Source: a virus
Taxonomy: Duplodnaviria > Heunggongvirae > Uroviricota > Caudoviricetes
Length of the DNA stretch: 50,278 bases
IMG/VR virus record: IMGVR_UViG_2595698871_000001
Location: 173,443 to 223,720 of that record
Direction: 5' to 3' (one strand)
This document shows, one piece after another, positions 5,818-50,278 of the stretch. The notes beneath the pieces are model-generated. The model ran no database searches. It was given only the letters and a program-made list of their open reading frames with translations, and was not told the origin of the DNA. The number at the start of each line of letters is the position of its first letter. Position 1 is the first letter of the stretch. Made by a program: the position numbers and the translations under genes.

Positions 5818-6445
5818 TCTCCTGCTGGGCGCCGGCGCGGCCGTCATCGCCGCCGGGGTCGCCCAGGCCAAACCGGTTCACGTGTCGGAGGTCAAGCCGA
5901 CGACCTACACGTGGTACTCCAGCTACGAGACGGGCATCCGCCAGCGCGACACCCACGACACCCGCTACACGATCCGCTGGGAGCAGGGCGCCATGCAGCA
6001 CCCGCACGCTGACATCGTGCGCAAGTGGGTCCGCGAGACCATCGACAGCGGCTACCTCTACTGCTTCGGCGACATCCACTGGATGGATCGCAAGGTCCGC
6101 CTGGAAGACGTCCACATCGTCATCCGGCCGGGCAAGAAGGTCTGGAACCACGTCACCGGCTACACCGACGAGGAGGGTCTCCAGATCGAGGTCAACGAGG
6201 CTGGTGCGGTCTTCGCGCCGTTCGGCCTCGCCTCGACCCATGGCCTGACCTACGTCCGCGAGTCGATGCGCGACACCTATTATGTCCGCAAGCCGTACCT
6301 GCGCTACGACGAGGAGCGCGAGCTTCGCTTCGCCCTGGGCGACGACCCGCAAGGCTACCGCGCGCCGAACTCCAAGGTCGGCTTTGACGACCGGATGTGG
6401 ACCGAGGTCCTGAAGGACCTGGAAGCCAAGAAGGCCCAGGCCTGA
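5804..6445 (+). CDS. putative Tat-exported protein
   Basis: MNRRNLLLGAGAAVIAAGVAQA|K: twin-arginine motif, h-region, AxA site. Confidence 0.7.
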   Translation: MNRRNLLLGAGAAVIAAGVAQAKPVHVSEVKPTTYTWYSSYETGIRQRDTHDTRYTIRWEQGAMQHPHADIVRKWVRETIDSGYLYCFGDIHWMDRKVRLEDVHIVIRPGKKVWNHVTGYTDEEGLQIEVNEAGAVFAPFGLASTHGLTYVRESMRDTYYVRKPYLRYDEERELRFALGDDPQGYRAPNSKVGFDDRMWTEVLKDLEAKKAQA

Positions 6446-7639: not shown

Positions 7640-8182
7640 ATGACCTCCCACCGCCTCGACTTCACCAGCAACGATCTTTGGCCGCCCAAGGTCGACTACG
7701 AGATGAAGAAGCTGCGCTACGACACTGCGCTCGACGCGCTGGAGATCGTCCATCCCAAGAACCGCCTGGGCAACCGGGTCGACGTCTCCCACATCTGCTC
7801 CTACCTGATGAACGGGCGCGTCAAGGGCATCCTCGACCACATCGCCAGCACCGGCGTCGAGGACCCGCGCGAGCAGACCTTCAAAATCCTGCGCATCCTG
7901 GAAAACCGGGGCATGATCGCCAACAGCGGGGGCGACTGGACGCTGACCGCGACCGGCGCGATTTGGCATCTGGTGGCGGACAACCACCCCTCGGGCTGGG
8001 CCGAGCAACAGGCCCTGCTCTACGACATCCGCCTGCAATGGTGGGCGGGACACGAGATCGTCGCGGCCATCAAGGAGACGCCGTACTTCCAGATGCGGCC
8101 CAAGCACGGCGCCGTGCCGACCATCGCCTTCGACCTCTCGGCCCTGCAACAACCGCTCGACGGGTGGAACGGATGGCGCTGA
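7640..8182 (+). CDS. hypothetical protein, possible winged helix
   Basis: ILRILENRGMIANSGGDWTLTATG. Confidence 0.65.
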   Translation: MTSHRLDFTSNDLWPPKVDYEMKKLRYDTALDALEIVHPKNRLGNRVDVSHICSYLMNGRVKGILDHIASTGVEDPREQTFKILRILENRGMIANSGGDWTLTATGAIWHLVADNHPSGWAEQQALLYDIRLQWWAGHEIVAAIKETPYFQMRPKHGAVPTIAFDLSALQQPLDGWNGWR

Positions 8183-38003: not shown

Positions 38004-40736
38004 ATGACCTTCTATCCCATGGAGGACCGGGCCAAGGCTCGCTCCGTCGTCACCAACCTGCTGGACCTCCAGCGCGAAGCCGTCAAGGTGGGCCGTCAAG
38101 GGCTGATCCTGCCGCCCGAGCGCAAGCAGTTGATCACCCAGTTGACCGAGACCGAGGATCACACCCGCTGGGTGGACCTCTTGGGTCAGTTCGCCGATCG
38201 CGTCCAGACCGATCACCTCTCGCGCCTGAAGCCGATCGCCAAGGACGACTTCAACGCCTTCTGCGAGTACGTCAACCCCGACGAGCCGCCGGCCTCCAAG
38301 TGGCACGTCTTCCTGACCGGCACGCTCCAGGAGATCGAGAACAACCCCGAGCTTGAGCGCTTCGTGCTCAACTGCCCGCCGGGCCACGCCAAGCCGCTGG
38401 ACGTCGACACCGAAGTGCTGATGGCTGATGGCGCCTGGAAGCGTCTGGGCGACATCCAGGTGGGCGACTACGTGGTGGGCGAGAGCGGCGCGCGCTGCAA
38501 GGTCACCGCCGTCCATGAGCAGGGCGACCTCGACACCCTGAAGATCACCACCGCCCACGGCCGGCAGATCATCGCCGCGCCCGACCACTCGTTCCGGGTC
38601 GGTGACGGCTGGAAGCCGGCCGGCAAGCTGCGTCCGGGTGACGCCCTGTCCGTCGTCGGCGCCGCCAACCTCAACTACGACGCCAGCGGCAAGTCGATCG
38701 ACCACTTCGAGCTTGCCGCCTACCTCCAGGCCAAGGGCGGGCGCTCCTACTTCCACCGCGTCCACAAGAGCGGGCCGAAGACCTACCGCAACGTCTATCT
38801 GTGGACGTCCGACCACCGCGAGGCCAGCCAGATCAGCACGTGCCTCAAGCGCATGGGCGTGGCCTTCAAGGGGCGGCTGGCCAAGACCGAGAAGGTCTGG
38901 AAGATGCGCCTCTCGACCGAGTGGGGCGACGCCCTGGCCGAGGAGTACGGCCTGGACGCCAAGATCGACGCGCGTCGTGTTCCGGCCTTTGTCACGAAAG
39001 GCGACGAGGAGCAGATCGGCCGCTACCTGTCGACCCTGACCTCGCTGGCCGGCGAAGCTCCCGAGCGCTACACCATCCCGCGTCTGGTGCTCTACTTCAA
39101 GAACCCCGACTTCGCCACCGACGTCCAGCGCCTGTTCGCCGCCGTCGGCGTCAACGCGCGCATCGAGCCGCGCAAGACCGGTCGCACCCGGCTGCACATC
39201 TCCGGCGCCGATCTCGAAGCCTACTTCGCCGCCGGCCTGACCTACACCGGCCCCAACGCCGACAAGCTGCCGGCCAAGCGCGCGGCGTTCCCGACCGCGC
39301 CCTCGACGCTGGCCGATCACGTCACCTGGATCGAGCCGCATGGGGTGCGCCCCTGCCGCTGCCTGACGGTCGAGAACGAGCACACCTTCATCGCCCAGGG
39401 CGTGGTGGTCCACAACTCGACCTACGCCTCGCGCCTGTTCGTGGCGTGGCGCCTGGGCCGCGATCCGCGCCAGAAGATCATCGGCGGCGGCCACTCCCAA
39501 CGCTTCGTCGAAAACGAGTTCAGCGGCAAGATTCGCAACCTCGTGCGGACGCCCCAGTTCAAGGACGTCTTCCCCGGCGTGGTCATCGACCATGCCACCT
39601 CGGCTAAGGACATGTGGGCGATCGCCGGGCACGGCGGGCAGTATGCCGCCAAGGGCGCCGGTCAGGCCATCCACGGTCTGCGCGCCAACTTCGTCTGCGT
39701 CGATGACCCCTATCCGTCGATCCAGAAGGCCGAGAGCGGGGCCTACCGCGAGGAAGTCCGCACGTGGTTCTTCGGTGACGTTGGCTCGCGTCTGTTGCCG
39801 CTCGCTAAAGTATTCCTCATCATGACGCGCTTTCATGAGGAAGATTTGACGGGTACGATCCTCAAGTACAACCAAGACGCACTTGTGGAGTCTGACCGTT
39901 ACCACATCGTCGAAGCGCCCGCTCTGTGTTACGACCCCGAGAACGACGTCCTCGGCCGCGCTCTGGGCGAAGTTTTGTGGGACTACTATGACTTGCATTA
40001 CTTCAAACGGAAGCGCTCCGAGTGGAAGTACCAAAGATTTGCTTTGGTTTATCAACAACTTGCGGACGCCGCCTCGGACACGTCGATCGCGTCCAAGTTC
40101 CAGACCTACCAGCACCTGCCGCACCTGGACCCGAAGGTCCTCAAGGCGCGCATGGACGCGGGGCATGTTGACGATCGCGGCCGGCCGATCCCGGACCGCA
40201 AGGAGCACTTCCGCCGCATCGTGACCTCGGTCGACGCGGCCCAGAAAAAGGGCGCGCGCAACGACTACACGGTCGTCCAGGTGTGGGGCGAGACCCACGA
40301 TCGCAAGCACTACCTGATCTACCAGGAGCGCAAGAAGGTCGAGATCAACGACCTGATCGAGATGGTCGAGCGCATCTCCAAGCGCTTCGACGTCGACTCT
40401 ATCCTGGTCGAGGACAAGGGCAACGGCACCGCCTACATCCAGGCGCGGGGCCAGACCGACAGCCAGCGCCGGCTCGCGCCGGCCCCGATCGAGGCGATCC
40501 AGGTCCCCAGCACCTACTCCAAGGAGTTCCGCTTCAACGAGGTCATCCCGATGATCGAGGCGCAAGAGGTCTACCTGCCCGACAAGGCGCCGTGGCTGGA
40601 CCTGTTCATCCGCGAAGTCGGGCAGTTCCCCGAAGGCGCCCACGATGACCAAGTCGACGCCATGACGCAGTACCTCCGCTGGGCCAAGTCCAAGCGCTCG
40701 CGGTTCGGCGCGCGCAAGGTCGGCTCGATGGGCTGA
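38004..40736 (+). CDS. terL: terminase large subunit, intein-containing (569 aa after splicing)
   Basis: Walker A PPGHAK|S, GGQY..KG, VCVDDP Walker B, IMTRFHEEDL, nuclease SVDAA...DYT, HDDQVDA. Confidence 0.95.
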   Translation: MTFYPMEDRAKARSVVTNLLDLQREAVKVGRQGLILPPERKQLITQLTETEDHTRWVDLLGQFADRVQTDHLSRLKPIAKDDFNAFCEYVNPDEPPASKWHVFLTGTLQEIENNPELERFVLNCPPGHAKPLDVDTEVLMADGAWKRLGDIQVGDYVVGESGARCKVTAVHEQGDLDTLKITTAHGRQIIAAPDHSFRVGDGWKPAGKLRPGDALSVVGAANLNYDASGKSIDHFELAAYLQAKGGRSYFHRVHKSGPKTYRNVYLWTSDHREASQISTCLKRMGVAFKGRLAKTEKVWKMRLSTEWGDALAEEYGLDAKIDARRVPAFVTKGDEEQIGRYLSTLTSLAGEAPERYTIPRLVLYFKNPDFATDVQRLFAAVGVNARIEPRKTGRTRLHISGADLEAYFAAGLTYTGPNADKLPAKRAAFPTAPSTLADHVTWIEPHGVRPCRCLTVENEHTFIAQGVVVHNSTYASRLFVAWRLGRDPRQKIIGGGHSQRFVENEFSGKIRNLVRTPQFKDVFPGVVIDHATSAKDMWAIAGHGGQYAAKGAGQAIHGLRANFVCVDDPYPSIQKAESGAYREEVRTWFFGDVGSRLLPLAKVFLIMTRFHEEDLTGTILKYNQDALVESDRYHIVEAPALCYDPENDVLGRALGEVLWDYYDLHYFKRKRSEWKYQRFALVYQQLADAASDTSIASKFQTYQHLPHLDPKVLKARMDAGHVDDRGRPIPDRKEHFRRIVTSVDAAQKKGARNDYTVVQVWGETHDRKHYLIYQERKKVEINDLIEMVERISKRFDVDSILVEDKGNGTAYIQARGQTDSQRRLAPAPIEAIQVPSTYSKEFRFNEVIPMIEAQEVYLPDKAPWLDLFIREVGQFPEGAHDDQVDAMTQYLRWAKSKRSRFGARKVGSMG
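38394..39416 (+). mobile_element. intein, 341 aa, Pro1, with degenerate LAGLIDADG domain
   Basis: Block A PLDVDTEVLMADG, block B AAPDHSF, block F CRCLTV, C-terminal HN|S; inserted between K and S of the P-loop. Confidence 0.92.
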
Positions 40737-40762
40737 TTAACCATCTTCGTTCACCCTGTCCG

Positions 40763-40799
40763 GGCCTGTTAACCTTAACACACCGATGGTTAACAGGCC
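40763..40799. repeat. 12-bp inverted repeat containing GTTAAC
   Basis: GGCCTGTTAACC 40763-40774 / GGTTAACAGGCC 40788-40799. Confidence 0.8.
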
Positions 40800-40927
40800 A
40801 GGGACCCATCGAAATTAACCCTTGGGGACCCAGGGGAATCGTCAGCCGGGGACCCTGGGAAATTAACCCTTGGGGACCCACCAAAATCAACCTTCGGGGA
40901 CCCTAGCGAATCGTGGCTCGGGGACCC
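40800..40927 (+). repeat. GGGGACCC array with exact 24-bp period
   Basis: Cores start at 40800 (AGGGACCC), 40824, 40848, 40872, 40896, 40920. Confidence 0.92.
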
Positions 40928-40948
40928 TGGCAAATCAAGGAGCCGGCG

Positions 40949-41182
40949 ATGGCCGAACTCATGAGCCTGCTGTTCAACATCGCCCCGTTCCTGCTGCTGG
41001 CGATCGTCGTCTACCACGTCCTGGAGGCCGTCTGGGCGATCAGCCTGTGGGTCTACGGCCTGCGCACCCTGTGGAAGCTCCACCGCGACGACGTCAGCGA
41101 GGCCCTGACCCTGGAGCGGGCCTTGAGCCCCTTCTCCAGCCCTGGCCGCGACCGCAACGGCAATCCCGTCCCGCCGGCCTGA
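40949..41182 (+). CDS. small membrane protein
   Basis: AAGGAG SD; LLFNIAPFLLLAIVVYHVLEAVWAISLWV. Confidence 0.7.
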   Translation: MAELMSLLFNIAPFLLLAIVVYHVLEAVWAISLWVYGLRTLWKLHRDDVSEALTLERALSPFSSPGRDRNGNPVPPA

Positions 41183-41189
41183 CGACCTA

Positions 41190-41215
41190 TGTCACGGACT
41201 GTAGGTTTCATGACA
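41190..41215. promoter_or_regulatory. 26-bp palindromic site TGTCA..-N12-..TGACA (copy 1)
   Basis: TGTCACG-gactgtaggttt-CATGACA. Confidence 0.55.
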
Positions 41216-41254
41216 AGGTGGATTATTCCACAACGAAATCAAAGGCTTATCGCC

Positions 41255-41503
41255 ATGTCGATCCGCACCTTCTTCCACGACCTCGCCGTCCGTTTCGTCG
41301 TTTTGGGGTGGATTTTTGCCCAAAAACCCCAGAAATGGGCTCCAAAAGGGCATAATTTTCAGCCCATCCCGCCGGCCCAGGTCGAGCGGCAGGACCTCCG
41401 GGGGCGCGTGCTTCTCCTGAGGAGCTTCGGCGTCCTCGCCGCCGCATGCACAACCATGGGCCTGTGTCAATACCTGCTCTGGCGCCGCGCGCCCATGTCA
41501 TAG
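41255..41503 (+). CDS. small putative membrane protein
   Basis: Hydrophobic N- and C-terminal segments; start uncertain. Confidence 0.55.
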   Translation: MSIRTFFHDLAVRFVVLGWIFAQKPQKWAPKGHNFQPIPPAQVERQDLRGRVLLLRSFGVLAAACTTMGLCQYLLWRRAPMS

Positions 41504-41521
41504 ACCATCGCTTTCGTGACA
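41496..41521. promoter_or_regulatory. 26-bp palindromic site (copy 2)
   Basis: TGTCATA-gaccatcgcttt-CGTGACA. Confidence 0.55.
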
Positions 41522-41550
41522 GCTTCACGATCCCGTTACCGGACAACCCC

Positions 41551-41649
41551 ATGCCCCACCTCGGTTTCTGGCTCTCCGCCGCCTGCATCGCCCTGGCCTG
41601 GGCGATCTGGGCGCTACGGCGGCTGATCGCCCCACCACCGCCCGCCTGA
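41551..41649 (+). CDS. 32-aa membrane peptide
   Basis: MPHLGFWLSAACIALAWAIWALRRLIAPPPPA; weak SD. Confidence 0.45.
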   Translation: MPHLGFWLSAACIALAWAIWALRRLIAPPPPA

Positions 41650-41695
41650 CCCCGGCCGCGCGCGCCCGCGCCGCCGGTATCGCCCGGCCAAAGCG

Positions 41696-41743
41696 TCATA
41701 TATGAGCCCTTAACCCCTCTAAGGTCGCATATATGAGACCTTA
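41696..41743. repeat. paired CATATATG palindromes
   Basis: TCATATATGA 41696-41705; TAAGGTC-g-CATATATG-a-GACCTTA 41720-41743. Confidence 0.75.
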
Positions 41744-41783
41744 CGGCCCTCTTGACGCCCTCGTGTTCCTCTGAACGCGGGGG

Positions 41784-41910
41784 CGTTTTGACGTCGGCGC
41801 ATTTCCAACTCAACGCGCGGCCGTTTTGACGTCCGAGCGTTTTGACGCGAGCGCATTTTCGATTCGACGGGCGAGCGTTTTGACGTCCGACCGTTTTTCA
41901 ACTTGACGTC
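41784..41910 (+). repeat. CGTTTTGACGTC direct repeats
   Basis: Copies at 41784, 41822, 41838 (variant), 41876 and partial TTGACGTC 41903. Confidence 0.85.
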
Positions 41911-41930
41911 GTTTCATTTACCAAGAGCGC

Positions 41931-42121
41931 CTTAAGGTTAACCGCCGAGCCTGGGAAGGGTTAAGGCCCGTTAACCATGTTTGTTAACCCTCAGGCCGTT
42001 AACCTATCACTCGTTAAGGTTAACGCGCCCGCCTCATTAACCCTTAGCGTGTTAAGGTTAACGCCCCGGCCCAGGCCGTTAAGGTTAACAAACATGGTTA
42101 ACGGGCCAGACCGGCGTTAAC
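41931..42121. repeat. dense TTAA/GTTAAC cluster with 25-bp perfect inverted repeat
   Basis: 15 TTAA in about 190 bp; IR arms 41965-41989 and 42083-42107. Confidence 0.88.
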
Positions 42122-42215
42122 CCTAACGGCCGGCGCCCAGCCGCGCCCAGGCGCTCGCCGGCGAGCCCAGGCCCTACCGGGTATGACCTGCCGGCCATAC
42201 CCGCCAGAGTGCGCC

Positions 42216-42473
42216 TCACGCGTCCGCGTCGGGCGACGCCGCCGCCCCGTAGTCGTGATCATTCCAGAGTATGCCCAGAATTTCGTCAGGCCCGAACGAC
42301 GGGAGAAGGGTTTGCAGGGCGTCGTATGTCTCGCGGAAGGCGCTCGCGTCGTCGTCCTGCATCCAGACCGACTCCTTGCCGGTCTTGTCGCGGAACGTGT
42401 ACGCCGCGCCGTTCCCGTAGCTGTCGAGGGCGAAGCGTTCGCCCTCCGATATCCGAAGCGGTCCTGAGTACAT
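42216..42473 (-). CDS. hypothetical protein (only minus-strand gene)
   Basis: MYSGPLRISEGERFALDSYG...; GGAG SD on minus strand; own CtrA-box promoter. Confidence 0.7.
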   Translation of the reverse strand: MYSGPLRISEGERFALDSYGNGAAYTFRDKTGKESVWMQDDDASAFRETYDALQTLLPSFGPDEILGILWNDHDYGAAASPDADA

Positions 42474-42530
42474 GGGGCGTTCTCCAAGGGCGCGGGATGC
42501 GCCCGACCCGTGCAATCTGACAGCCAATTC

Positions 42531-42545
42531 TTAACAAAAGGTTAC
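42531..42545 (-). promoter_or_regulatory. CtrA box promoter (leftward)
   Basis: Minus strand GTAA-ccttttg-TTAA-G. Confidence 0.75.
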
Positions 42546-42564
42546 CGTGAGATTTTTCTTGCCG

Positions 42565-42596
42565 TTTACTTTTTGTTAAGAATTGGGGTCTAGTGT
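42565..42596 (+). promoter_or_regulatory. CtrA box promoter
   Basis: TTTA-ctttttg-TTAA 42565-42579, then CTAGTGT. Confidence 0.8.
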
Positions 42597-42646
42597 CCCT
42601 CTTGTCGGGGCCACCCCCGGCGCTCTTTGACATTGTGAGGCAACCC

Positions 42647-42835
42647 ATGATTCCCCAAGAAATCCTGAATCCGCGCGAGCACTGGACTCCCGTCGCCTCG
42701 CGCGAGGAAGCCGACAAGATCGCCGCGCGCTGCACCGAAGGCGACCCCGTCGGCCGCTACTATGTCGAGTCCAAGGGCGCCGGCTACGCTGTCGCCTATG
42801 ACGACGAGACGGGCCAATTCGTCGCCTACCTCTAA
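42647..42835 (+). CDS. hypothetical protein
   Basis: GAGG SD then ATG 42647. Confidence 0.7.
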   Translation: MIPQEILNPREHWTPVASREEADKIAARCTEGDPVGRYYVESKGAGYAVAYDDETGQFVAYL

Positions 42836-42890
42836 CCCCGCGCCCCGGCCTCGCGCCGGGGCGCTCCGCCCCTCTTTCGGAGCCTTCCCC

Positions 42891-43283
42891 ATGCCCAGAA
42901 ATTCCGGCCTCTTGCGCCTTATGGCCACCCATGCCGCCCCCGTCATCAAGGCTTATCACGACGATTTCGCCGTGCATGACGCCAAGGTCATTGACGGACT
43001 GGAGGCGGGCGACGTGATCTTGTGGGCGCCCGACCCGTGCGGCTCGACTCTCATCGTCATGGCCCGCGCCGGGCGCCCTAATCACCGCGCCGCCGAACAC
43101 TTCGAAGCCGCCCAGAGCGCCCGCAAGCCGCCCGCGTGGTTCGTCGCTTCGGTCTATGACAACGGGGAGGCGGGCGGCTGGAATTTCGCCCCCGCCCCGG
43201 ACGCGCCGGCCATTGTCGCGCGCTTCGCCGAACAAGCCGCCCGCGACCCCGCGCCCGACCCGGTGCGCGAGCTACACCTTTAA
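42891..43283 (+). CDS. hypothetical protein
   Basis: GGAG SD; TAA stop is part of the next CtrA box. Confidence 0.7.
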   Translation: MPRNSGLLRLMATHAAPVIKAYHDDFAVHDAKVIDGLEAGDVILWAPDPCGSTLIVMARAGRPNHRAAEHFEAAQSARKPPAWFVASVYDNGEAGGWNFAPAPDAPAIVARFAEQAARDPAPDPVRELHL

Positions 43284-43310
43284 CCTTTTGTTAAGACATG
43301 GCCTCTATAC
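43280..43310 (+). promoter_or_regulatory. CtrA box promoter
   Basis: TTAA-ccttttg-TTAA 43280-43294, then CTATAC. Confidence 0.85.
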
Positions 43311-43344
43311 CGGGGCCATGTCCAACCCCTGGAGGCCCTGCCCC

Positions 43345-43884
43345 ATGTCCGCTATCGAAACCGCCAACCTCTCGCGCGGCCGTGTTCTCACGGTCGAAAT
43401 CGACGACTGCGCCCAAGAGCCCTACGCGGGCGACAAGGGCGTGCGAATCGTCGTCCTGCATCGCCATTGGACGAACCCCGCCGCCGGCCTGCTGGACTCG
43501 GTCGCGGACGTTCAAGCCTTCGAGGCGGAGAACGCCGCGCCCGACTCCGAATGGGCGATCTTTGAGCTATGGGTGATGGACCATAGCGGCCGGACCTTCA
43601 AGGCCGGCGCGCTGGGCGCCGGAAACCCGTTCGGCGCCGGACCCTACGCCCAATGGGATAGCGGCCGGGTCGGAGTCATCGCCCTGGCGCGCGCCGAGTG
43701 GCCCGCCGCCGACCTCAAGACCGCCCAAGGCGTCGCCGACACCTACGGCGCATGGGCCGAAGGCGAGGTTTACCAATTCGTCATTTCGAACCGCCGGGGC
43801 GACGTGCTCGACTCGTGCGGCGGGTTCTACAGCGTCGCCGAAGCCCTGGCCGCCGGCCGCGACGCCGCCAAGGTGAAAGCGTGA
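43345..43884 (+). CDS. conserved phage protein of unknown function
   Basis: DHSG...WDSG.VG.I...GEVY.F...DSCGGFY motif. Confidence 0.75.
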   Translation: MSAIETANLSRGRVLTVEIDDCAQEPYAGDKGVRIVVLHRHWTNPAAGLLDSVADVQAFEAENAAPDSEWAIFELWVMDHSGRTFKAGALGAGNPFGAGPYAQWDSGRVGVIALARAEWPAADLKTAQGVADTYGAWAEGEVYQFVISNRRGDVLDSCGGFYSVAEALAAGRDAAKVKA

Positions 43885-44075
43885 GAGTCGCCCGCGAAAG
43901 CTTCGCCGTGTTCTGGACCCGCCCCGGCTGGCGCGTCCAGTTTCACGCCGACATGAAACGGGCGCTGTACCCGACCGCCAAGGCCGCCGCCGACGCCTTC
44001 GCCGCCATGTTCCCGGCTGATCAGGTCAAGAGCGTGCGCGACGGCTCCGGCCGCTTCCTGGCCTTCAAGCGCTAG
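43881..44075 (+). CDS. hypothetical protein
   Basis: GTGA overlap. Confidence 0.6.
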   Translation: MRVARESFAVFWTRPGWRVQFHADMKRALYPTAKAAADAFAAMFPADQVKSVRDGSGRFLAFKR

Positions 44076-44080
44076 ACCAG

Positions 44081-44117
44081 ACGCCCCGGAAAACTTTTCC
44101 GGGGCGTTTACTTTTTG
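44081..44117 (+). terminator. intrinsic terminator overlapping next CtrA box
   Basis: ACGCCCCGGAA / TTCCGGGGCGT stem then TTACTTTTT. Confidence 0.75.
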
Positions 44118-44138
44118 TTAAGGAATGGCGTCTAGTGT
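44107..44138 (+). promoter_or_regulatory. CtrA box promoter
   Basis: TTTA-ctttttg-TTAA 44107-44121, then CTAGTGT. Confidence 0.8.
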
Positions 44139-44183
44139 CCCTCTTGCCGCCGGGCAATCCCGCCCGGCCTTGGAGTTCTTCCC

Positions 44184-44702
44184 ATGCCGGAATTTGTCCT
44201 AGATACGTCGGGCCAAGTCGCCCCGCCCGCCGCCGCCAAGCTTTGGCCGCACCCCCTGGCCTGGAATCAGTTGAGCGATTTTGCTCAAGGCTACATCGAG
44301 GCCCTGTTTTTCACCGAGTCGTCGCCGGCCTATGACCGCGCCGAATGGTTCGGCGCCGAGTGTCAAGAGGCCCTGACCGAAGGCACGGCGGACGGCAACA
44401 TTCCGGGCGATGTCGGGTTTTCCGACCTCGCGCCCGACACCCTCAACCGCATCTTGAACGACTGCGCCAACTTCAAGCGCGAGCACGCCGACACCCTGGC
44501 CAAGGCCTATGACCACGGCGGCGCGGCGGGCGACTATGACGAAACCCAAGCCGGCCGCGATTACTGGTACACCCGCAACGGCCATGGCGTCGGGTTTTGG
44601 GATCGCGGACTCGGCGAGATCGGCGAGGCCCTGAGCAAGGCCGCCCGCTACAGCGAGCAAAACGCCTCTTTCGAAGAGGACGGAAAAGTCTACCTGTTTT
44701 AA
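44184..44702 (+). CDS. conserved phage protein of unknown function
   Basis: GYIEALFFTE...QAGRDYWYTRNGHGVGFWDR motif. Confidence 0.75.
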   Translation: MPEFVLDTSGQVAPPAAAKLWPHPLAWNQLSDFAQGYIEALFFTESSPAYDRAEWFGAECQEALTEGTADGNIPGDVGFSDLAPDTLNRILNDCANFKREHADTLAKAYDHGGAAGDYDETQAGRDYWYTRNGHGVGFWDRGLGEIGEALSKAARYSEQNASFEEDGKVYLF

Positions 44703-44730
44703 CCTTTTGTTAAGACTTGGCCTCTAGGGT
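44699..44730 (+). promoter_or_regulatory. CtrA box promoter
   Basis: TTAA-ccttttg-TTAA 44699-44713, then CTAGGGT. Confidence 0.85.
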
Positions 44731-44794
44731 CGAGTTGTCCCGGCGCCGGGGCTGGAAACCCCGGCGCGTCCATTCCGTGAAAGGAATCCATACC

Positions 44795-45541
44795 GTGTCT
44801 TTTGGTCAATTCTCCGCCGACGCCCGCGCCCCGCTGTCGAAAGCCGCCATGCTGGACGCCCTGCCCGCCGCCCGCCGCGACACTCTGGTCAAGGCCAGCA
44901 AGCCGGCGCGAAACACCCTCGATTACACGACGTCGGACGGCGTGCGCCGCGTGCGCCTGCATGACACCGACGTTCTGACCTTCCATGTCAACGGCGCCGT
45001 CGAGATCAACACGGGCGGCTGGAATACCCTGACCACGCGCGACCGCATCAACGCCTTCGCCCCGCCTCACGTGCGCGTCTACAGCGACAAGGGCCGCGCC
45101 ATGGTCCGCGCCATGCCGGCCGGTAGCGAGGCCGTCACGTGGTCCAGCCCCGCCGCGTCCAAGCCGTTCGCCAAGCGCGCCACCGTCCACCCGGACGGCC
45201 GAATCGAAGTGGACGCCACCGTCAAGGAACTGGAGGCGATTCCTGCCCTCATCCGCCGCTATCTGGAGGCCTTCAAGGCCGGATTCCCGTTCAACTCGTC
45301 GGGCGACCCCTGGATGACGCCCGGCGCCCTCGTCGCCCCTGAAACGGCCCTGGATTGGCTGGGCGCCGACAGCGGCAAGCCGTACCTGTTCGACTCGATC
45401 CTGTTTCACGCCCATGTTGCGGCCGGCCTGACCGAAGAGGGCGCGGCCTATTACATGCGCGACGCCGCCCGGCGCGGGATCGACAAATTCAACCTTGGCC
45501 GCATCCGGCGCTATCTCAAGCGTTGCCTTCGCGAAGCCTAG
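44795..45541 (+). CDS. hypothetical protein with conserved phage domain
   Basis: AAGGA SD then GTG; VRLHDTDV...INTGGW.T.TT.DRIN. Confidence 0.7.
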   Translation: MSFGQFSADARAPLSKAAMLDALPAARRDTLVKASKPARNTLDYTTSDGVRRVRLHDTDVLTFHVNGAVEINTGGWNTLTTRDRINAFAPPHVRVYSDKGRAMVRAMPAGSEAVTWSSPAASKPFAKRATVHPDGRIEVDATVKELEAIPALIRRYLEAFKAGFPFNSSGDPWMTPGALVAPETALDWLGADSGKPYLFDSILFHAHVAAGLTEEGAAYYMRDAARRGIDKFNLGRIRRYLKRCLREA

Positions 45542-45549
45542 GACCCTCC

Positions 45550-45582
45550 GGCCGCGCCTCCCCTGGCGCGGCCTTTCTTTTT
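45550..45582 (+). terminator. intrinsic terminator
   Basis: GGCCGCGCC / GGCGCGGCC stem plus TTTCTTTTT. Confidence 0.8.
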
Positions 45583-45593
45583 CCGTGTACGCG

Positions 45594-45626
45594 TTAACCT
45601 GTTGTTAAGACTTTATCCGCTAGTGT
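45594..45626 (+). promoter_or_regulatory. CtrA box promoter
   Basis: TTAA-cctgttg-TTAA 45594-45608, then GCTAGTGT. Confidence 0.85.
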
Positions 45627-45671
45627 CCCTTTGCCGGCGCACTTCCGCGCCCTCACCTGGAGATTTTCCCC

Positions 45672-46292
45672 ATGGCCCGCCTGATCAAAGCCAAGACCGC
45701 CGCCGAACAAGCCGAAGCCCTCGCCAGCCTGCGCAAGATGATCAAGCCGGGCGACACGGTTTATCCCGTGCTCCGCCACGTCTCGACCTCCGGCATGTTG
45801 CGGGTCATTGACCTGATTATCCCGGTCACCGTCACCCAAACCGACACCTTGCCGGCCGATGCGCGCGGCTTCAAGATCGGCGTTCAAGCCTATGCGACCC
45901 CGCCGGAGCGCAACGCCCCCCGCGCCTTCTCGACCGGAACCGTAACGGGTTTCGACGCCGACACCGTGACCATTGCCTATCAGGCCACCGCCGACGGCCG
46001 GGGCGACGCGGAGTCGGTGACGTGGCCCCGTGGTCAGGTCAAGTTCTACCGCAAGAGCACGCGCCCCGGCGTCCGCTCGATCGGCTGGCTTGCCGCGAAG
46101 GCCATGGGCGACACCTTCGACGCCGACCGCCAAGGAATCAAGGTCGGCGGGTGCGGTATGGATATGGGCTTTCACCTCGTTTACAGCCTGGGCCGCACCC
46201 TGTGGCCGAACGGGACGAAAAAGCCCCATGGCTCGCGCAATGGCGAGCCGGACCGTGACGGCGGTTATGCGCTGAAACATTCCTGGCTTTAA
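45672..46292 (+). CDS. conserved phage protein of unknown function
   Basis: VLRHVS.SGM.R.I...GCGMDMGFHLVY.L motif; GGAG SD. Confidence 0.75.
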   Translation: MARLIKAKTAAEQAEALASLRKMIKPGDTVYPVLRHVSTSGMLRVIDLIIPVTVTQTDTLPADARGFKIGVQAYATPPERNAPRAFSTGTVTGFDADTVTIAYQATADGRGDAESVTWPRGQVKFYRKSTRPGVRSIGWLAAKAMGDTFDADRQGIKVGGCGMDMGFHLVYSLGRTLWPNGTKKPHGSRNGEPDRDGGYALKHSWL

Positions 46293-46321
46293 CTTTTTGT
46301 TAAGAGTTTAGCCGCTAATGT
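46289..46321 (+). promoter_or_regulatory. CtrA box promoter
   Basis: TTAA-ctttttg-TTAA 46289-46303, then GCTAATGT. Confidence 0.85.
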
Positions 46322-46369
46322 CTCCTTGCGGCCGGGCAATCCCGCCCGGCCGCACTCGGAACCAAGCCC

Positions 46370-46642
46370 ATGACCCGCGCTCAAGCCCTCGCTGAAATGA
46401 ACGCCCTCCCCGGTATCATCGCCTCTTTCGAGCGCGAGACGGGCGAATATCGCGTCACCCTGCGCTTTGGCCCCCTGCCGGGCGGCCGGGGCGCTCAAGA
46501 GTGGATGCACAAGCGCCGCGAAGCCGTCGCCAGCTACAGCGACGACAAGGCCGACGCCCTGGCCACCGCCCGCGACATGTCGGCCCGCTGGGAAGCCATG
46601 ACGCCCGCGCAACGTGATCACCTGTACCGCCACCCCGCGTAA
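46370..46642 (+). CDS. hypothetical protein
   Basis: Lies between two CtrA cassettes. Confidence 0.7.
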   Translation: MTRAQALAEMNALPGIIASFERETGEYRVTLRFGPLPGGRGAQEWMHKRREAVASYSDDKADALATARDMSARWEAMTPAQRDHLYRHPA

Positions 46643-46671
46643 CCCTTCGTTAAGACCTCGCCGCCTAGAGT
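46639..46671 (+). promoter_or_regulatory. CtrA box promoter
   Basis: GTAA-cccttcg-TTAA 46639-46653, then CTAGAGT. Confidence 0.75.
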
Positions 46672-46706
46672 GGCGGGGTCATCAACCCCCGCAAGGATCG
46701 CCCGAC

Positions 46707-46985
46707 ATGCGCAAGCCCCTCACCCAAGAGCAAAAGGCCCGCCGCCGCGCCCAACGCCGCGCCGCCCGCCTCAACTGGAGCGACGAACGCCGCGCGGCCG
46801 AATACGCCCGCCAATCGCGCTTTTTCCTGATGATCGCCGAACGCGCCCAAGCGGCGGGCGACGCCAAGGAAGCCGCCCGCCTCGCCACCGTCGCCCAACG
46901 CAAGGTCACTAACTGGCGCATGGCGCAAGCCTGCGCTCGCATCAACGCCCTTTCCGTCCACGCCTGGGCCGCTGTCGCGGCCTAA
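46707..46985 (+). CDS. basic Arg/Ala-rich helical protein
   Basis: AAGGA SD; MRKPLTQEQKARRRAQRR. Confidence 0.65.
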   Translation: MRKPLTQEQKARRRAQRRAARLNWSDERRAAEYARQSRFFLMIAERAQAAGDAKEAARLATVAQRKVTNWRMAQACARINALSVHAWAAVAA

Positions 46986-47018
46986 GCCGCCGCGCCCGAA
47001 CCGAAGGAACCCCGCCCC

Positions 47019-47342
47019 ATGCCCCCGATGACTCACCCTCACGCCCTGGCCTTGATCGCGCTCGCGGAAAAGGTCCTGCCCCTGACCCGGCTGGACCCGC
47101 TGAATCAGCGCGCCGCCGCTGTCGACCTGATCGGCGATCTTTACAGCCTCGCCGACTCCATCGACGCCACCGCCGGCCATCTGGTCGCCGCTGTCAACGG
47201 CGCCTTGCGTGACGGCTGCGAGGGCTACGCGCCCAAGAGCCGCGCCGCCGCCGCTGTCGCCACCGTCCGCGCCGACGAACTGCGCTCCGCCCTGGAAGCG
47301 TACACCGAAGCCGCCGCCCTGGCCCTGCCGAAGGTCGCCTAA
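47019..47342 (+). CDS. hypothetical protein
   Basis: AAGGA SD. Confidence 0.65.
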   Translation: MPPMTHPHALALIALAEKVLPLTRLDPLNQRAAAVDLIGDLYSLADSIDATAGHLVAAVNGALRDGCEGYAPKSRAAAAVATVRADELRSALEAYTEAAALALPKVA

Positions 47343-47343
47343 C

Positions 47344-47916
47344 ATGACCGTCACCCGCTACCGCCTCCCCGACATGACCGCTTACGGTAAGGGGCTTTCC
47401 GAAACGCTTTATGCGGCGTTCGAAGCCCTGAAAAATCCGCAAGCGCCCTACAAGCCGGGCGAACGCGCCCGCCTCATCGAGTCGCTGATCACCTACAGCG
47501 CCGGCGCCCATACGCCCAAGGCCCCCGACTCGGTCCTCGCAACCCTGCTTTGGGTTGTCGAAATGGCGCAAGAGCGCGCCACCGACTCCGACTTCAACAC
47601 GGCGCGCGAGGCGCTGGACGAACACGCCGCCTTAGGGTTCGTCACCGATTGGCTAGAAGCGCACGGCTTGGACGTGGCCCGCATCCGGGGCGCGGAACTC
47701 AGCGCCGAAGCCCGCGCCTCTCTGGTTGAGGAAGCCGACGCCGAACAAGCCAAGCTGGACGCCCTGGAAGCCGCCCAGACGGGCGAAACGCCCGCCGACG
47801 TGATCACCGAAGCCCTCGCCCCGTTCCTGGGCTCCACGGTCGCGGAAAACCACTCTGACGACGTGCTGGCGGCGCTGGACGCGGCCGGCTTCACCATCAC
47901 CCGAAAGGACGCCTGA
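47344..47916 (+). CDS. hypothetical protein
   Basis: ATG 1 nt after upstream TAA. Confidence 0.7.
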   Translation: MTVTRYRLPDMTAYGKGLSETLYAAFEALKNPQAPYKPGERARLIESLITYSAGAHTPKAPDSVLATLLWVVEMAQERATDSDFNTAREALDEHAALGFVTDWLEAHGLDVARIRGAELSAEARASLVEEADAEQAKLDALEAAQTGETPADVITEALAPFLGSTVAENHSDDVLAALDAAGFTITRKDA

Positions 47917-47918
47917 GC

Positions 47919-48638
47919 ATGACCGCCCCCGCCCTGACCCGCGCCGCCGCCCTGGAAGCCCTGGAAATCGCCCGCGCCAACCTCGCCGCCGGCCCCGCCC
48001 TGGCCAAGGCCGCCGACGGCGTGACGGATGTGTGTCACTTCGCCCTGACCCGCGCCGCCATGCTCAAGGCCGCCGACATGATCGCCGCCGCCGCCCCGGC
48101 GCTGGACCTGGGCGCCGTCTCGACGGCCGATCTAATCGCCGAACTCTACCGCCGCCCCGTCGCGCTTTGCGTGTTCGAAGCCGCCGACGTGCTCACCGAA
48201 GCGCCCGGCGCTTTCGACGACGCCGACGACGCGGGCCAATGGCTGGCGAGCAAGTCCAGCTATATCGGCGACGCGATGAGCGGCGCCGGCTGGGACTCGG
48301 TGCGCTATCACCTGACCGCCGACGGCCGGGCGACCGATGACGACGAGGAAGGCGAGGAAGCCGACGACGAGGGCGACGCCCTCCCCGTCGCCGTGACCTT
48401 GGAGCAAGGCGACGCCGTCCCCGTGGTCGGGCGCTTCGCCACCGTGTCGGAGGCTGAAACCTTCCTGGCGTCGCCGATCCGTGATCAAGCCGCCCTCACC
48501 GCCGGGCGCTACGGTATCGACGCGCCGCACGGCGTGGCCAGCGACGACGACGCCGTGACCCTGGCGCGCCGCCTGGGCTGGGCTGGCGTGGCGAACGCGG
48601 CCGAAGCCTTGCGCTTCCTGGCCAAAATCGAGCCTTAA
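47919..48638 (+). CDS. hypothetical acidic protein
   Basis: AAGGA SD; DDDEEGEEADDE tract. Confidence 0.7.
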   Translation: MTAPALTRAAALEALEIARANLAAGPALAKAADGVTDVCHFALTRAAMLKAADMIAAAAPALDLGAVSTADLIAELYRRPVALCVFEAADVLTEAPGAFDDADDAGQWLASKSSYIGDAMSGAGWDSVRYHLTADGRATDDDEEGEEADDEGDALPVAVTLEQGDAVPVVGRFATVSEAETFLASPIRDQAALTAGRYGIDAPHGVASDDDAVTLARRLGWAGVANAAEALRFLAKIEP

Positions 48639-48647
48639 GCCCGGCTA

Positions 48648-48673
48648 AGTCATCAAACCTATCGTCTATGACA
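48648..48673. promoter_or_regulatory. 26-bp palindromic site (copy 3, inverted)
   Basis: AGTCATC-aaacctatcgtc-TATGACA; 20/26 identical to reverse complement of copy 1. Confidence 0.5.
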
Positions 48674-48829
48674 TGTCACGGGCTGAATACTTGGCTCGTG
48701 ACGACTTCCCCTAGTAAAGCTCACGCCTGTTTTCGTGACATAGCGCAAGGAATTGAAATCGTTGGAAAAACTCCTAGAGGGTCACAAAGTTCTGGTTTGG
48801 CTGCTGCTTCTGGCTTGCCTCTGGCGCTT

Positions 48830-48862
48830 TTAACCCTTTGTTAAGACTTTACCCGCTAGGGT
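48830..48862 (+). promoter_or_regulatory. CtrA box promoter
   Basis: TTAA-ccctttg-TTAA 48830-48844, then GCTAGGGT. Confidence 0.85.
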
Positions 48863-48918
48863 GACTTTGCGGCCGGGCAATCCCGCCCCGCCGCCCTTCC
48901 TTCTCTGGAGCCGCTACC

Positions 48919-49359
48919 ATGCAAACCGCTTCCGTGATCCTCCCCGCCCAAACCCTGGCCGGCGCCGACCTTGGCCCCGTGCTGATGGTCTTCGCCCTGG
49001 AACTGTCGCAGCACTTCGGCGACGTCACCCAAGCCCCGACCGTCGAGCGCTGGACCGATGAGGCCACGGGCGCCGAGTTCGTCGCCGACTGTGTGGCGTT
49101 CACGGTGTCGGCGGACTGGACCGCCAAGGGCGGGCGCATGGCGCGCCGCCTGGAGAACATGGCCGCCCGCTACGCCGCCCCGTGCGAGGCCCCGGCCCTG
49201 ACCGTCCAGCACGCCGACGGCTCAACCGTCTACGTCGCCGCCCTGGAGGCGCTGGCGCGCCCTGCCCCGGTGCAAGGCCCCTCGCGCATCGCAGACCCGG
49301 CTTTCCTCCCTCGCCAGCGTGAGGACAAGGCCGCCCGCTTCGAACGCCTGACCGCCTAG
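48919..49359 (+). CDS. hypothetical protein
   Basis: GGAG SD. Confidence 0.7.
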   Translation: MQTASVILPAQTLAGADLGPVLMVFALELSQHFGDVTQAPTVERWTDEATGAEFVADCVAFTVSADWTAKGGRMARRLENMAARYAAPCEAPALTVQHADGSTVYVAALEALARPAPVQGPSRIADPAFLPRQREDKAARFERLTA

Positions 49360-49381
49360 GCCTTGGCCTAGCCTCTCCCCT

Positions 49382-49415
49382 AGCGCACCGCCTCGCAAGC
49401 GGTGCGCTTTTCTTT
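49382..49415 (+). terminator. intrinsic terminator
   Basis: AGCGCACCGC / GCGGTGCGCT stem plus TTTCTTT. Confidence 0.85.
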
Positions 49416-49420
49416 GCGTA

Positions 49421-49454
49421 TTAACTTGTTGTTAAGAGTTTAGCTGATAGTGTC
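49421..49454 (+). promoter_or_regulatory. CtrA box promoter
   Basis: TTAA-cttgttg-TTAA 49421-49435, then ATAGTGT. Confidence 0.85.
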
Positions 49455-49503
49455 CCCTTGTTGGCGACGCATCCCGCGCCGCTCCTCTCTTGGATCGCTC
49501 CAC

Positions 49504-49896
49504 ATGGCCCGCCCTTCTGACCTGCTCAACGTCAACGCCGCCCGCGTCCTGGCTTGCCTGGAAGCCCTGGCCGGCGTCGTTAAGACCGCCCCGGAAACCG
49601 ATCGCGCCGCCTTCTCCTACCTGCTGGACGCGGCCGAATTCGTCGCTTCCTGGCGCCGCAACCATACGGAAACCGATCGCCGTCGCGCCTACGGTGCAGC
49701 GTGCGCGGCGCAAGCCCTGGCCCTGACCAATGCCTATCAGCCCGCGACCATGCAAGGCGGGGCGGTGCGCCGCGCTCTGGGCGCCTATGCCGCCGCCCTT
49801 AAGCTGCTGCTGGACGGTGAGCCGGTGCAAGCCGTGCGCGCGGCCGAAGGCGCCGCCCAGAGCGTGCGCGGGCGCTTCGCTAACACCCGCATCTAG
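49504..49896 (+). CDS. hypothetical Ala-rich protein
   Basis: ATG 49504; weak SD. Confidence 0.65.
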   Translation: MARPSDLLNVNAARVLACLEALAGVVKTAPETDRAAFSYLLDAAEFVASWRRNHTETDRRRAYGAACAAQALALTNAYQPATMQGGAVRRALGAYAAALKLLLDGEPVQAVRAAEGAAQSVRGRFANTRI

Positions 49897-49928
49897 TAAC
49901 CTTCTGTTAAGACCCCCTGGCCTATAGT
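49896..49928 (+). promoter_or_regulatory. CtrA box promoter
   Basis: GTAA-ccttctg-TTAA 49896-49910, then CTATAGT. Confidence 0.75.
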
Positions 49929-49953
49929 CGGGGGGTCGCAAGGAGACACCCAC

Positions 49954-50145
49954 ATGACCCGCCCCGGCCCCGCCTCGCTCCTCTCGCCCGCCGCCACCTT
50001 CTCGGCGCATAACCTGACCCTTCCGGGCGCTCGCCCTATGCCCCTGCCCAAGGCGCAAGGCCTGACCCTTCGCCAGTGCGTCGCCCTGGGCGCTGGCCTT
50101 GGCGCTCTGGCCTATGTCGCGTTGCGCGCGCTGGGCGTGCTCTGA
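49954..50145 (+). CDS. small protein with C-terminal transmembrane helix
   Basis: AAGGAG SD; VALGAGLGALAYVALRALGVL. Confidence 0.6.
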   Translation: MTRPGPASLLSPAATFSAHNLTLPGARPMPLPKAQGLTLRQCVALGAGLGALAYVALRALGVL

Positions 50146-50174
50146 CCTGACCCCCGGCGCCCCCGGTCGCCTCG

Positions 50175-50226
50175 CGGTAGGGCTGTCCCATATTGAGACG
50201 GCCCTACCGGGGTAGTGTTTCTTTTT
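50175..50226 (+). terminator. long hairpin / probable terminator
   Basis: CGGTAGGGC(t)GTC...GAC(g)GCCCTACCG stem, T-rich run downstream. Confidence 0.55.
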
Positions 50227-50278
50227 GGGACGAGGGACCCAAAGGCCCCCTACGTTAACCATTTTTGGCGGCGCCCCC

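Follow-up and report, generated by a model that had tools for sequence, protein, structure and literature searches.

TTAA half-sites clustered in the CcrRogue terminal repeat: candidate sites for a host CtrA-type factor

The genome of Caulobacter phage CcrRogue ends in direct terminal repeats (DTRs), and each of these contains a short intergenic array crowded with TTAA words, so that every virion genome carries two copies. Which protein reads this array, and what could it be for? The regulator CtrA binds TTAA half-sites and silences the Caulobacter chromosomal origin in swarmer cells. We analysed a window of 50,278 nucleotides which is the right end of CcrRogue (NC_019408, bases 173,443-223,720 of the 223,720-bp record). 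The answer put forward here, with about even confidence and from the sequence, is that the array may be a cluster of CtrA-type half-sites in a non-coding control region that heads the early region of the DTR. A host CtrA-type factor (CtrA with or without SciP) would be the most economical reader of its words, a judgement that we regard as equally balanced.

The original prediction for this locus had listed 15 TTAA words (the first at 41932, the last at 42117), four copies of TTAAGGTTAAC, a perfect 25-nt inverted repeat and the absence of any pair with N7 spacing. All of this was reproduced by script. The copies of TTAAGGTTAAC start at 41932, 42014, 42052 and 42079, the arms of the inverted repeat are exact reverse complements separated by 93 nt, and none of the 15 TTAA words lie 11 bp apart start-to-start. 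The array and the two arms are located as follows.

41931..42127, no strand assigned: TTAA half-site array with 15 TTAA (scripted check)
41965..41989, plus strand: left arm of the 25-nt inverted repeat, GTTAACCAT-GTTT-GTTAACC, with a TTAA-N9-TTAA arrangement (repeat search, script)
42083..42107, minus strand: right arm, an inverted duplication, present in CcrRogue and CcrSwift only (alignment)

The density of the array was exceptional. It held 15 TTAA per 200 bp compared with a genome mean of 0.12 (about 100-fold) and a maximum of 6 elsewhere, while base composition predicted 0.16. The window had 15 copies of GTTAAC against an expectation of 2.25, nine of them in the array. Start-to-start distances between TTAA words were 6, 10, 13, 15, 17, 19, 21 and 23 bp, including one pair with N6 spacing (41961/41971) and two with N9 spacing (41971/41984 and 42085/42098). 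An 'avoidance' of N7 is not established by these figures, because only about one N7 pair would be expected among the 36 pairs spaced by no more than 40 bp.

The repeat unit of the array was the 9-mer GTTAACCNT, present in nine exact copies (four on the plus and five on the minus strand) together with one ATTAACCCT. When the N of GTTAACCNT is T or C and AAC follows, the result is a 12-mer, GTTAAGGTTAAC or GTTAGGGTTAAC, which is a direct repeat of the hexamers xTTAAG and GTTAAC; when N is A the unit reads GTTAACCAT, of which the array has two. Counted as words, GTTAAGGTTAAC/CTTAAGGTTAAC was found four times on the plus strand, GTTAACCCTAAC once and GTTAACCATG twice. There were 11 copies of GTTAACCNT per DTR as against six in the 203-kb unique part of the genome, where two were expected. 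With one mismatch allowed, the 12-mer occurred in the 223.7-kb genome only in the array and at 40768, and in CcrSwift, CcrBL10 and phiCbK it was likewise limited to the DTR.

These words are familiar from the host. Two kinds of CtrA site have been described in C. crescentus, TTAA-N7-TTAAC and the half-site TTAACCAT; sequences with nothing but TTAA in common can be bound by CtrA as well, and distant Alphaproteobacteria have an identical CtrA recognition helix (PMC3692519). At the host promoters of pilA and ctrA P1/P2, CtrA uses N6-spaced and single half-sites (PMC11264516). The chromatin immunoprecipitation (ChIP) consensus of its partner SciP has been given as (G/A)TTAACCAT(A/G), RTTAACCATR (PMC4083442). 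The two GTTAACCATG words of the array, at 41970 (plus strand) and 42093-42102 (minus strand), were exact matches to the CtrA half-site and the SciP ChIP word, and the seven other copies of GTTAACCNT deviated from this type of word solely at the N position.

The phage also uses CtrA-type half-sites in what appear to be its own promoters, the first of which lie 0.4 kb downstream of the array.

42524..42588, both strands: divergent CtrA-box promoters, GTAAC-N5-GTTAAG (minus) and TTTAC-N5-GTTAAG (plus), the first of 11 in the DTR
43280..49910, plus strand: nine further canonical or near-canonical TTAAC-N5-GTTAAG boxes, each with a -10 element, a leader and a small open reading frame (ORF)

The 11 DTR boxes read TTAAC-N5-GTTAAG and were followed after about 10 nt by a CTAGTGT-type -10, then by a leader and a small ORF. 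Of the TTAA-N7-TTAA sites in the window (at most one mismatch), all 11 were situated at 42531-49910 within the DTR, the array contributing none; perfect sites numbered six per DTR and zero in the 203-kb unique part. It is known that canonical CtrA sites crowd the DTRs of phiCbK-like phages and that the gp005 and gp018 promoters of phiCbK are bound by CtrA and depend on it (Mascolo et al. 2022, PMC9437464). In the supplement of that study CcrRogue itself is listed in the LPEG set and inferred to be pilitropic. The divergent promoters at 42524-42588 formed a near-perfect 18-nt inverted repeat, CCAATTCTTAACAAAAGG / CTTTTTGTTAAGAATTGG, and the leftward one served a small ORF that is absent from phiCbK and CcrBL10.

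The array differed from these boxes. A promoter and terminator scan of the array block gave nothing above chance; by inspection, the TTGACG words of the block had no -10 at Caulobacter spacing, and the array units had no CTAGTGT-type -10 at promoter spacing. The array units are therefore not promoters. In other words, the array is an intergenic cluster of half-sites, enclosed by two terminator-like hairpins, upstream of promoters that use the same half-sites in canonical register.

Searches with the array led to phages well beyond the relatives of phiCbK. Matches were obtained in Brevundimonas jumbo phages, Caulobacter Bertelyviruses, the Erythrobacter phages XM05 and L02, Citromicrobium phage RXM, Mesorhizobium phage Cp1R7A-A1 and Delta-like Brevundimonas phages. 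Phage XM05 possessed the exact 25-mer of the CcrRogue arm, and Brevundimonas phage Delta its 19-nt core, GTTAACAAACATGGTTAAC. Delta is not kin to phiCbK in the proteome tree of Mascolo et al., and an 81-bp probe from its TTAA-rich gap binds CtrA in an electrophoretic mobility shift assay (PMC9437464). In this gap the words of the CcrRogue array were interleaved at spacings of 6, 11 and 13 bp. The link to CtrA drawn in the original prediction is thus the best-supported reading, the array words being those of the published half-site, of the phage's own promoter half-sites and of the region of Delta bound by CtrA.

When IMG/VR was scanned for pairs of 12-mers within 34 nt, 49 stretches were returned, with a G+C content of 50-66%. 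The 12-mer was especially abundant in XM05, with 41 copies in 30 kb, and in phage Kabachok, with 50 copies in 36 kb. These two phages and several metagenomic contigs had one 12-mer in nearly every intergenic gap of the early cassettes, as a rule just past a terminator; in many cases a degenerate half-site (GTAA or TTTA) was 7 bp away. These 12-mers of XM05 and Kabachok occupied the place where CcrRogue has canonical boxes. Across the phages, distances from TTAA to TTAA peaked at 6, 11 and 13 bp and sums thereof. Some metagenomic phage-like contigs contained seven tandem 12-mers with a fixed period of 16 or 18 bp (1873-1992, 1-108 and 785-892 in the respective contigs). Tandem arrays of this kind were sometimes located at contig ends, which suggests that they break assemblies.

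Among the records covered by the search, the closest to CcrRogue were CcrSwift (92%) and CcrBL10 (91%). The array was kept in all ten phiCbK-like phages that were aligned: the (G)TTAAC(C) cores were held while the spacers drifted, and column identity was 77% for TTAA as against 63% for the other columns. This bears on the suggestion that the array is neutral repeat DNA, the decayed or duplicated leftovers of former CtrA-box promoters. Units were indeed gained, lost and inverted among close relatives, and they lack -10 elements, as such leftovers might. Nevertheless, the array persisted despite a flank divergence of 25-30%, its cores were better preserved than its spacers, and distant phages have analogous arrays, so that we consider a neutral origin most improbable. 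Gains involved whole 17-bp units, GTTARGGTTAACGCCCC, which were added in Ccr10 and Ccr2; adjacent units there make canonical TTAAC-N5-GTTAA boxes.

The inverted repeat had a different history. Among the ten phages the left arm was present in CcrRogue, CcrSwift and CcrBL10 and the right arm in CcrRogue and CcrSwift alone, being missing from CcrBL10, phiCbK and six other relatives. In phiCbK the arm 25-mer occurred with one mismatch, but directly past terL, the large terminase gene. Because the right arm is restricted to CcrRogue and CcrSwift, the inverted repeat seems to be a recent, lineage-specific inverted duplication of one composite site. The predicted fold of the array as a single strand was stable (-49 kcal/mol, z -8.95), and a search of the array against Rfam gave only sub-threshold matches to microRNA hairpins, due to the inverted repeat, and no RNA family. 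A role as cruciform or RNA is unlikely because the repeat is not conserved and its arms are 93 nt apart. As a functional element the inverted repeat was rejected, being absent from most relatives.

Could the array be something other than a transcriptional control region? Its setting has to be considered here. By identity of both genome ends the DTR of CcrRogue measures 10,321 bp, and its right copy begins at 39958 of the window, within terL. The left terminus of CcrRogue has been mapped to codon 652 of terL (Gill 2012, PMC3556154), which is the same place. In a 570-bp gap without genes (41650-42215), the array lies 2.0 kb into the DTR and 1.2 kb past the terL stop. The features around it were the following.

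38004..40736, plus strand: large terminase gene terL (PHROG phrog_38, E 5e-147; Pfam Terminase_6C)
40737..40948, no strand assigned: non-coding block adjoining terL (sequence, tandem-repeat and 12-mer searches)
41696..41743, no strand assigned: two CATATATGAG words in short palindromes (repeat search; conserved in CcrSwift, CcrBL10 and phiCbK)
41756..41789, plus strand: terminator-like hairpin with a T run, the end of the rightward unit from terL to the small ORFs (homologous to a phiCbK terminator)
41783..41919, no strand assigned: iteron-like array, GCGTTTTGACG five times interleaved with GCGCATTT (repeat search; Tandem Repeats Finder)
42178..42203, no strand assigned: GC-rich hairpin CGGGTATGACC / GGCCATACCCG, the right-hand close of the array (repeat search)
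42216..42473, minus strand: small ORF, phrog_17546, present in CcrSwift, absent from phiCbK and CcrBL10
50233..50262, plus strand: GGGACCC then GTTAACCAT near the right DTR boundary (sequence)

The block that follows terL contained TTAACCAT at 40739 and a 12-nt inverted repeat of GTTAAC words (40763-40799) with the isolated 12-mer inside it (40768-40779). Beyond it the order was three small ORFs, the CATATATGAG pair, the terminator-like hairpin, the GCGTTTTGACG iterons, the TTAA array and the GC-rich hairpin. The phiCbK homologue of the hairpin at 41756..41789 is annotated as a rho-independent terminator (1745-1774). The GC-rich hairpin sits just 3' of the leftward small ORF, and hairpins of a related type, CATACCCGGTAGGGCC, were present in phiCbK, CcrBL10 and Kabachok. 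The word GTTTTGACG was confined to the DTR in a genome-wide count.

Some further observations were made in this region. The intein of terL has Hint and LAGLIDADG domains (Pfam Intein_splicing, Hom_end_hint and LAGLIDADG_3). Directly past terL, GGGGACCC is repeated six times with a period of 24 bp (40800-40927). The word pair found after terL recurs at the packaging end point (GGGACCC + GTTAACCAT, 50233-50262), where it spans about 15-45 nt from the boundary and GTTAACCAT stops 17 nt short of it. GANTC, the methylation site of CcrM, occurred 3.2 times per kb in the DTR as against 1.18 per kb in the unique part, a 2.7-fold difference.

The array and its position relative to terL were found again elsewhere. 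In the phiCbK-like phages, Cp1R7A-A1, RXM and XM05 the array was located 0.5-2.4 kb from the left genome end, directly past terL. In the last three it follows the terL stop, and each of these phages has its own second iteron family. T-tract and TTGACG arrays similar to the CcrRogue iterons were found in Kabachok and in Roseobacter phage DSS3P8. The counterpart of the GCGTTTTGACG array in Kabachok consists of about 15 GATTTGACG units at the equivalent position (1130-1400 of the Kabachok stretch). In DSS3P8 and Rhodobacter phage RcXuper there are TGTTTTGACG arrays unaccompanied by TTAA arrays (1440-1600 in one stretch). GGGACCC/GGGTCCC repeats stand beside the TTAA arrays past terL in RXM (about 560-690 of the stretch) and XM05 (about 1370-1470). 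Between their two TTAA arrays XM05 (520-700 and 1640-1700 of the stretch) and RXM (1200-1360) have ATGGATCGAGGCCATTTTG repeats, whose core CGATCCATA is loosely DnaA-box-like (6/9) and has no equivalent in CcrRogue.

This arrangement lends some weight to the view that the words are sites of a phage-encoded DNA-binding protein and that the region from 40.7 to 42.2 kb is a replication origin or a pac-like region recognised by the terminase, the likeness to CtrA sites being coincidental or secondary. The position directly past terL near the left genome end is kept, the array adjoins phage-specific iterons (GCGTTTTGACG in CcrRogue, other words elsewhere) and phased GGGACCC repeats, and GGGACCC with GTTAACCAT is met again near the right DTR boundary. 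For an iteron origin one would look for phased direct repeats beside the gene of their initiator; direct GCGTTTTGACG repeats adjoin the array, and the TTAA units themselves are in both orientations and irregularly spaced. The rarity of the exact 12-mer in host chromosomes points in the same direction. There are, however, several difficulties. The mapped DTR boundary is 2 kb distant from the array. The 12-mers of the relatives are spread over early cassettes of 30-36 kb with one per intergenic gap, a distribution in keeping with transcription control but not with a single origin or pac site.

No match to Trans_reg_C or DUF1153, which we take to be the family of SciP although a search of papers gave no confirmation, was detected among the ORFs of CcrRogue or in a six-frame search of its genome. 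The original prediction had allowed for a phage protein that mimics CtrA; with no CtrA-like or DUF1153 ORF detected in the genome, such a protein would probably be a non-homologous one. The ORFs neighbouring the array showed no DNA-binding signature and no recognisable function. All CcrRogue ORFs of at least 40 amino acids were compared by tblastn with the whole genome of Delta, which has the same composite word. The proteins in common were ribonucleotide reductase subunits, ThyX, a deoxynucleoside monophosphate kinase, a superfamily 1 helicase, HNH and LAGLIDADG endonucleases, DUF4326, DnaT_2 and one small DTR protein, P0001; no site-specific regulator common to the two phages was found.

P0001 (90 amino acids, phrog_7462, window 46370-46642) is driven by a canonical CtrA box, and in the unrelated phage Delta a homologue, DELTA_2, adjoins the TTAA gap. 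The domain of P0001 was present in 226 cluster representatives, where it often forms the N-terminus of proteins of 300-700 amino acids without Pfam domains. The AlphaFold model was confident (pLDDT 86) and had no match in the PDB. As a common reader of the array P0001 was rejected, being absent from XM05, RXM, Cp1R7A-A1 and Kabachok, and this absence counts against a phage-encoded reader as well. Taken together, we regard a phage protein at an origin or packaging site as rather unlikely, although a serious alternative. In CcrRogue no protein resembling CtrA or SciP was detectable, and no obvious site-specific regulator is common to this phage and Delta; a host CtrA-type factor is therefore the best candidate.

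A different host protein might be the primary binder, either SciP on RTTAACCATR or a nucleoid-type silencer such as MucR on DNA rich in TA steps. The full SciP word is found in just two of about ten units, one exact match in each arm of the inverted repeat, and the binding of DNA by SciP on its own is reportedly disputed, with Gora et al. 2010 named in that connection. With its TTAA density, the highest in a genome of 66% G+C, the array would suit a silencer of the MucR type, but a protein that seeks AT-rich DNA in general is hard to reconcile with the conservation of the G..C flanks and the GG centre. In favour of SciP, this protein is present in swarmer cells, the cells infected by phages of the phiCbK type (PMC4083442). 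On balance we think such a binder improbable.

The original prediction had also proposed a CtrA-gated origin, modelled on the chromosomal origin of Caulobacter (Cori), which would delay phage replication until CtrA is cleared. In Cori, replication is silenced in swarmer cells by five CtrA boxes of the canonical N7 type, and there are also DnaA boxes and an AT-rich region. In favour of the idea, TTAA-rich DNA adjoins a second set of iterons, and the array resembles Cori as a cluster of CtrA-type sites in non-coding DNA. Unlike Cori, however, the CcrRogue array was found to have neither N7 boxes nor DnaA boxes nor an AT-rich region. No DnaA-box-like word (TKATCCACA, one mismatch allowed) was present at 40100-50278, the lowest G+C content of any 50 nt in the array was 44%, which leaves no AT-rich unwinding element, and the cumulative GC skew had no turn at the array. 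The last point is a weak one because the skew in this genome follows gene orientation. The claim of a gated origin is thus unsupported, and we rate it as very unlikely. A conceptual parallel, in addition to Cori, is provided by the Spo0A boxes at phi29 origins, which Mascolo et al. discuss (PMC9437464).

Several observations tell against a CtrA-type reader and must be set beside those in its favour. No pair of TTAA words in the array is spaced in the canonical 11-bp register. With the 6-bp register of the 12-mer, two winged-helix monomers would sit on opposite sides of the DNA, which is no known CtrA geometry, and the strictly kept central GG of the 12-mer suggests contacts beyond TTAA. The array always occurs with terL, the genome end, iterons and GGGACCC repeats, the setting expected of an origin or packaging site. 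In most of 400 sampled alphaproteobacterial genomes the exact 12-mer was present in 0-2 copies, which is about chance; hosts therefore seem not to use it as a CtrA site. In a separate observation, five bacterial genomes of Rhodobacterales had 5-19 exact copies of GTTAAGGTTAAC in their chromosomes as compared with none of the reversed control. Some of these were tandem (seven copies with a 19-bp period), and others were part of a dispersed REP-like (repetitive extragenic palindromic) element composed of the 12-mer, a GC-rich spacer and CTTCTTTGTTCCGCAAATATCC, between housekeeping genes. Examples were located at 7774-7899 and 6100-6170 of two stretches.

If a host CtrA-type factor is nevertheless the reader, a possible mode of action could be as follows. 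Phosphorylated CtrA (CtrA~P), possibly with SciP, would occupy the approximately 15 packed non-canonical half-sites weakly and cooperatively. The array might then serve as a local reservoir or buffer that sets the response of the 11 DTR promoters to the level of CtrA. As the genome is amplified it could become a sink, drawing CtrA off host targets and early promoters. The original prediction had suggested a loading platform or a sponge for CtrA as possible functions. A stronger version of this argument makes the array a decoy. In the infected swarmer cell it would capture SciP, the CtrA-SciP complex or bulk CtrA~P and so lift the G1 repression of early promoters, and the amplified genome would drain CtrA from the chromosomal origin, so that the host leaves G1. 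We think this scenario unlikely.

How does the array compare with systems already described? The phenomenon at the level of the compartment, DTRs dense in CtrA sites, has been published, this phage included (PMC9437464), a precedent absent from the original prediction, and the array shares with the regions of Mascolo et al. the phage group, the DTR compartment and the TTAA vocabulary. It also resembles the Delta gap of that study, in which canonical sites are mixed with many orphan TTAA, including the 12-mer and the 19-mer of CcrRogue. Unlike the canonical TTAA-N7-TTAA sites at promoters which were scored there, the CcrRogue array has no such site and no promoter, and consists of GTTAACCNT, the 12-mer and N9 composites. 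Upstream of pilA several CtrA sites with non-consensus (N6) spacing precede the CtrA box at -35; they tune the sensitivity to the CtrA level and both repress and induce, and ctrA P1, which uses a single half-site, offers a comparison for the half-sites of CcrRogue (PMC11264516). The pilA sites differ in that there are four of them within about 150 bp of their own promoter, whereas the CcrRogue array has about 15 half-sites at 0.4 kb from the nearest promoter and is flanked by terminators.

Bacillus phage phi29 carries clustered sites for a developmental regulator of its host, which couple the phage cycle to the host state (cited in Mascolo et al., PMC9437464). Both regulator and host are different from those of CcrRogue, the Spo0A boxes are consensus boxes at promoters and origins, and their binding has been demonstrated. 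There is also an analogy, and only that, to arrays of short units in both orientations and variable copy number on other replicons. The heptads of the omega system of pSM19035 and the hexamers of P1 pac are such units of 6-7 bp, direct and inverted, and are bound by small dimeric proteins. Unlike these systems, CcrRogue has no such protein that could be identified, and the spacing of its array is irregular. The papers that could be searched gave no description of a promoter-less cluster of half-sites only, of the words involved (GTTAACCNT, the 12-mer and the N9 composite) or of their exact conservation across phages of three host orders.

What these sites mean for the phages depends on their reader. 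Both GTTAAGGTTAAC and GTTAACCAT-N4-GTTAAC are common to phages of at least three host orders and rare in host chromosomes. If the binder is a phage protein, the block would mark an origin or packaging site of this group of phages. If the decoy scenario were true, the array would be a DNA 'sponge' for a master cell-cycle regulator, and GTTAAGGTTAAC a super-site evolved by phages and unused by their hosts. Phages of the phiCbK type, which infect swarmer cells only, wire the genes of their DTRs to CtrA. A half-site cluster separate from the promoters would add a second layer to this wiring, be it buffering, titration or the recruitment of a partner such as SciP.

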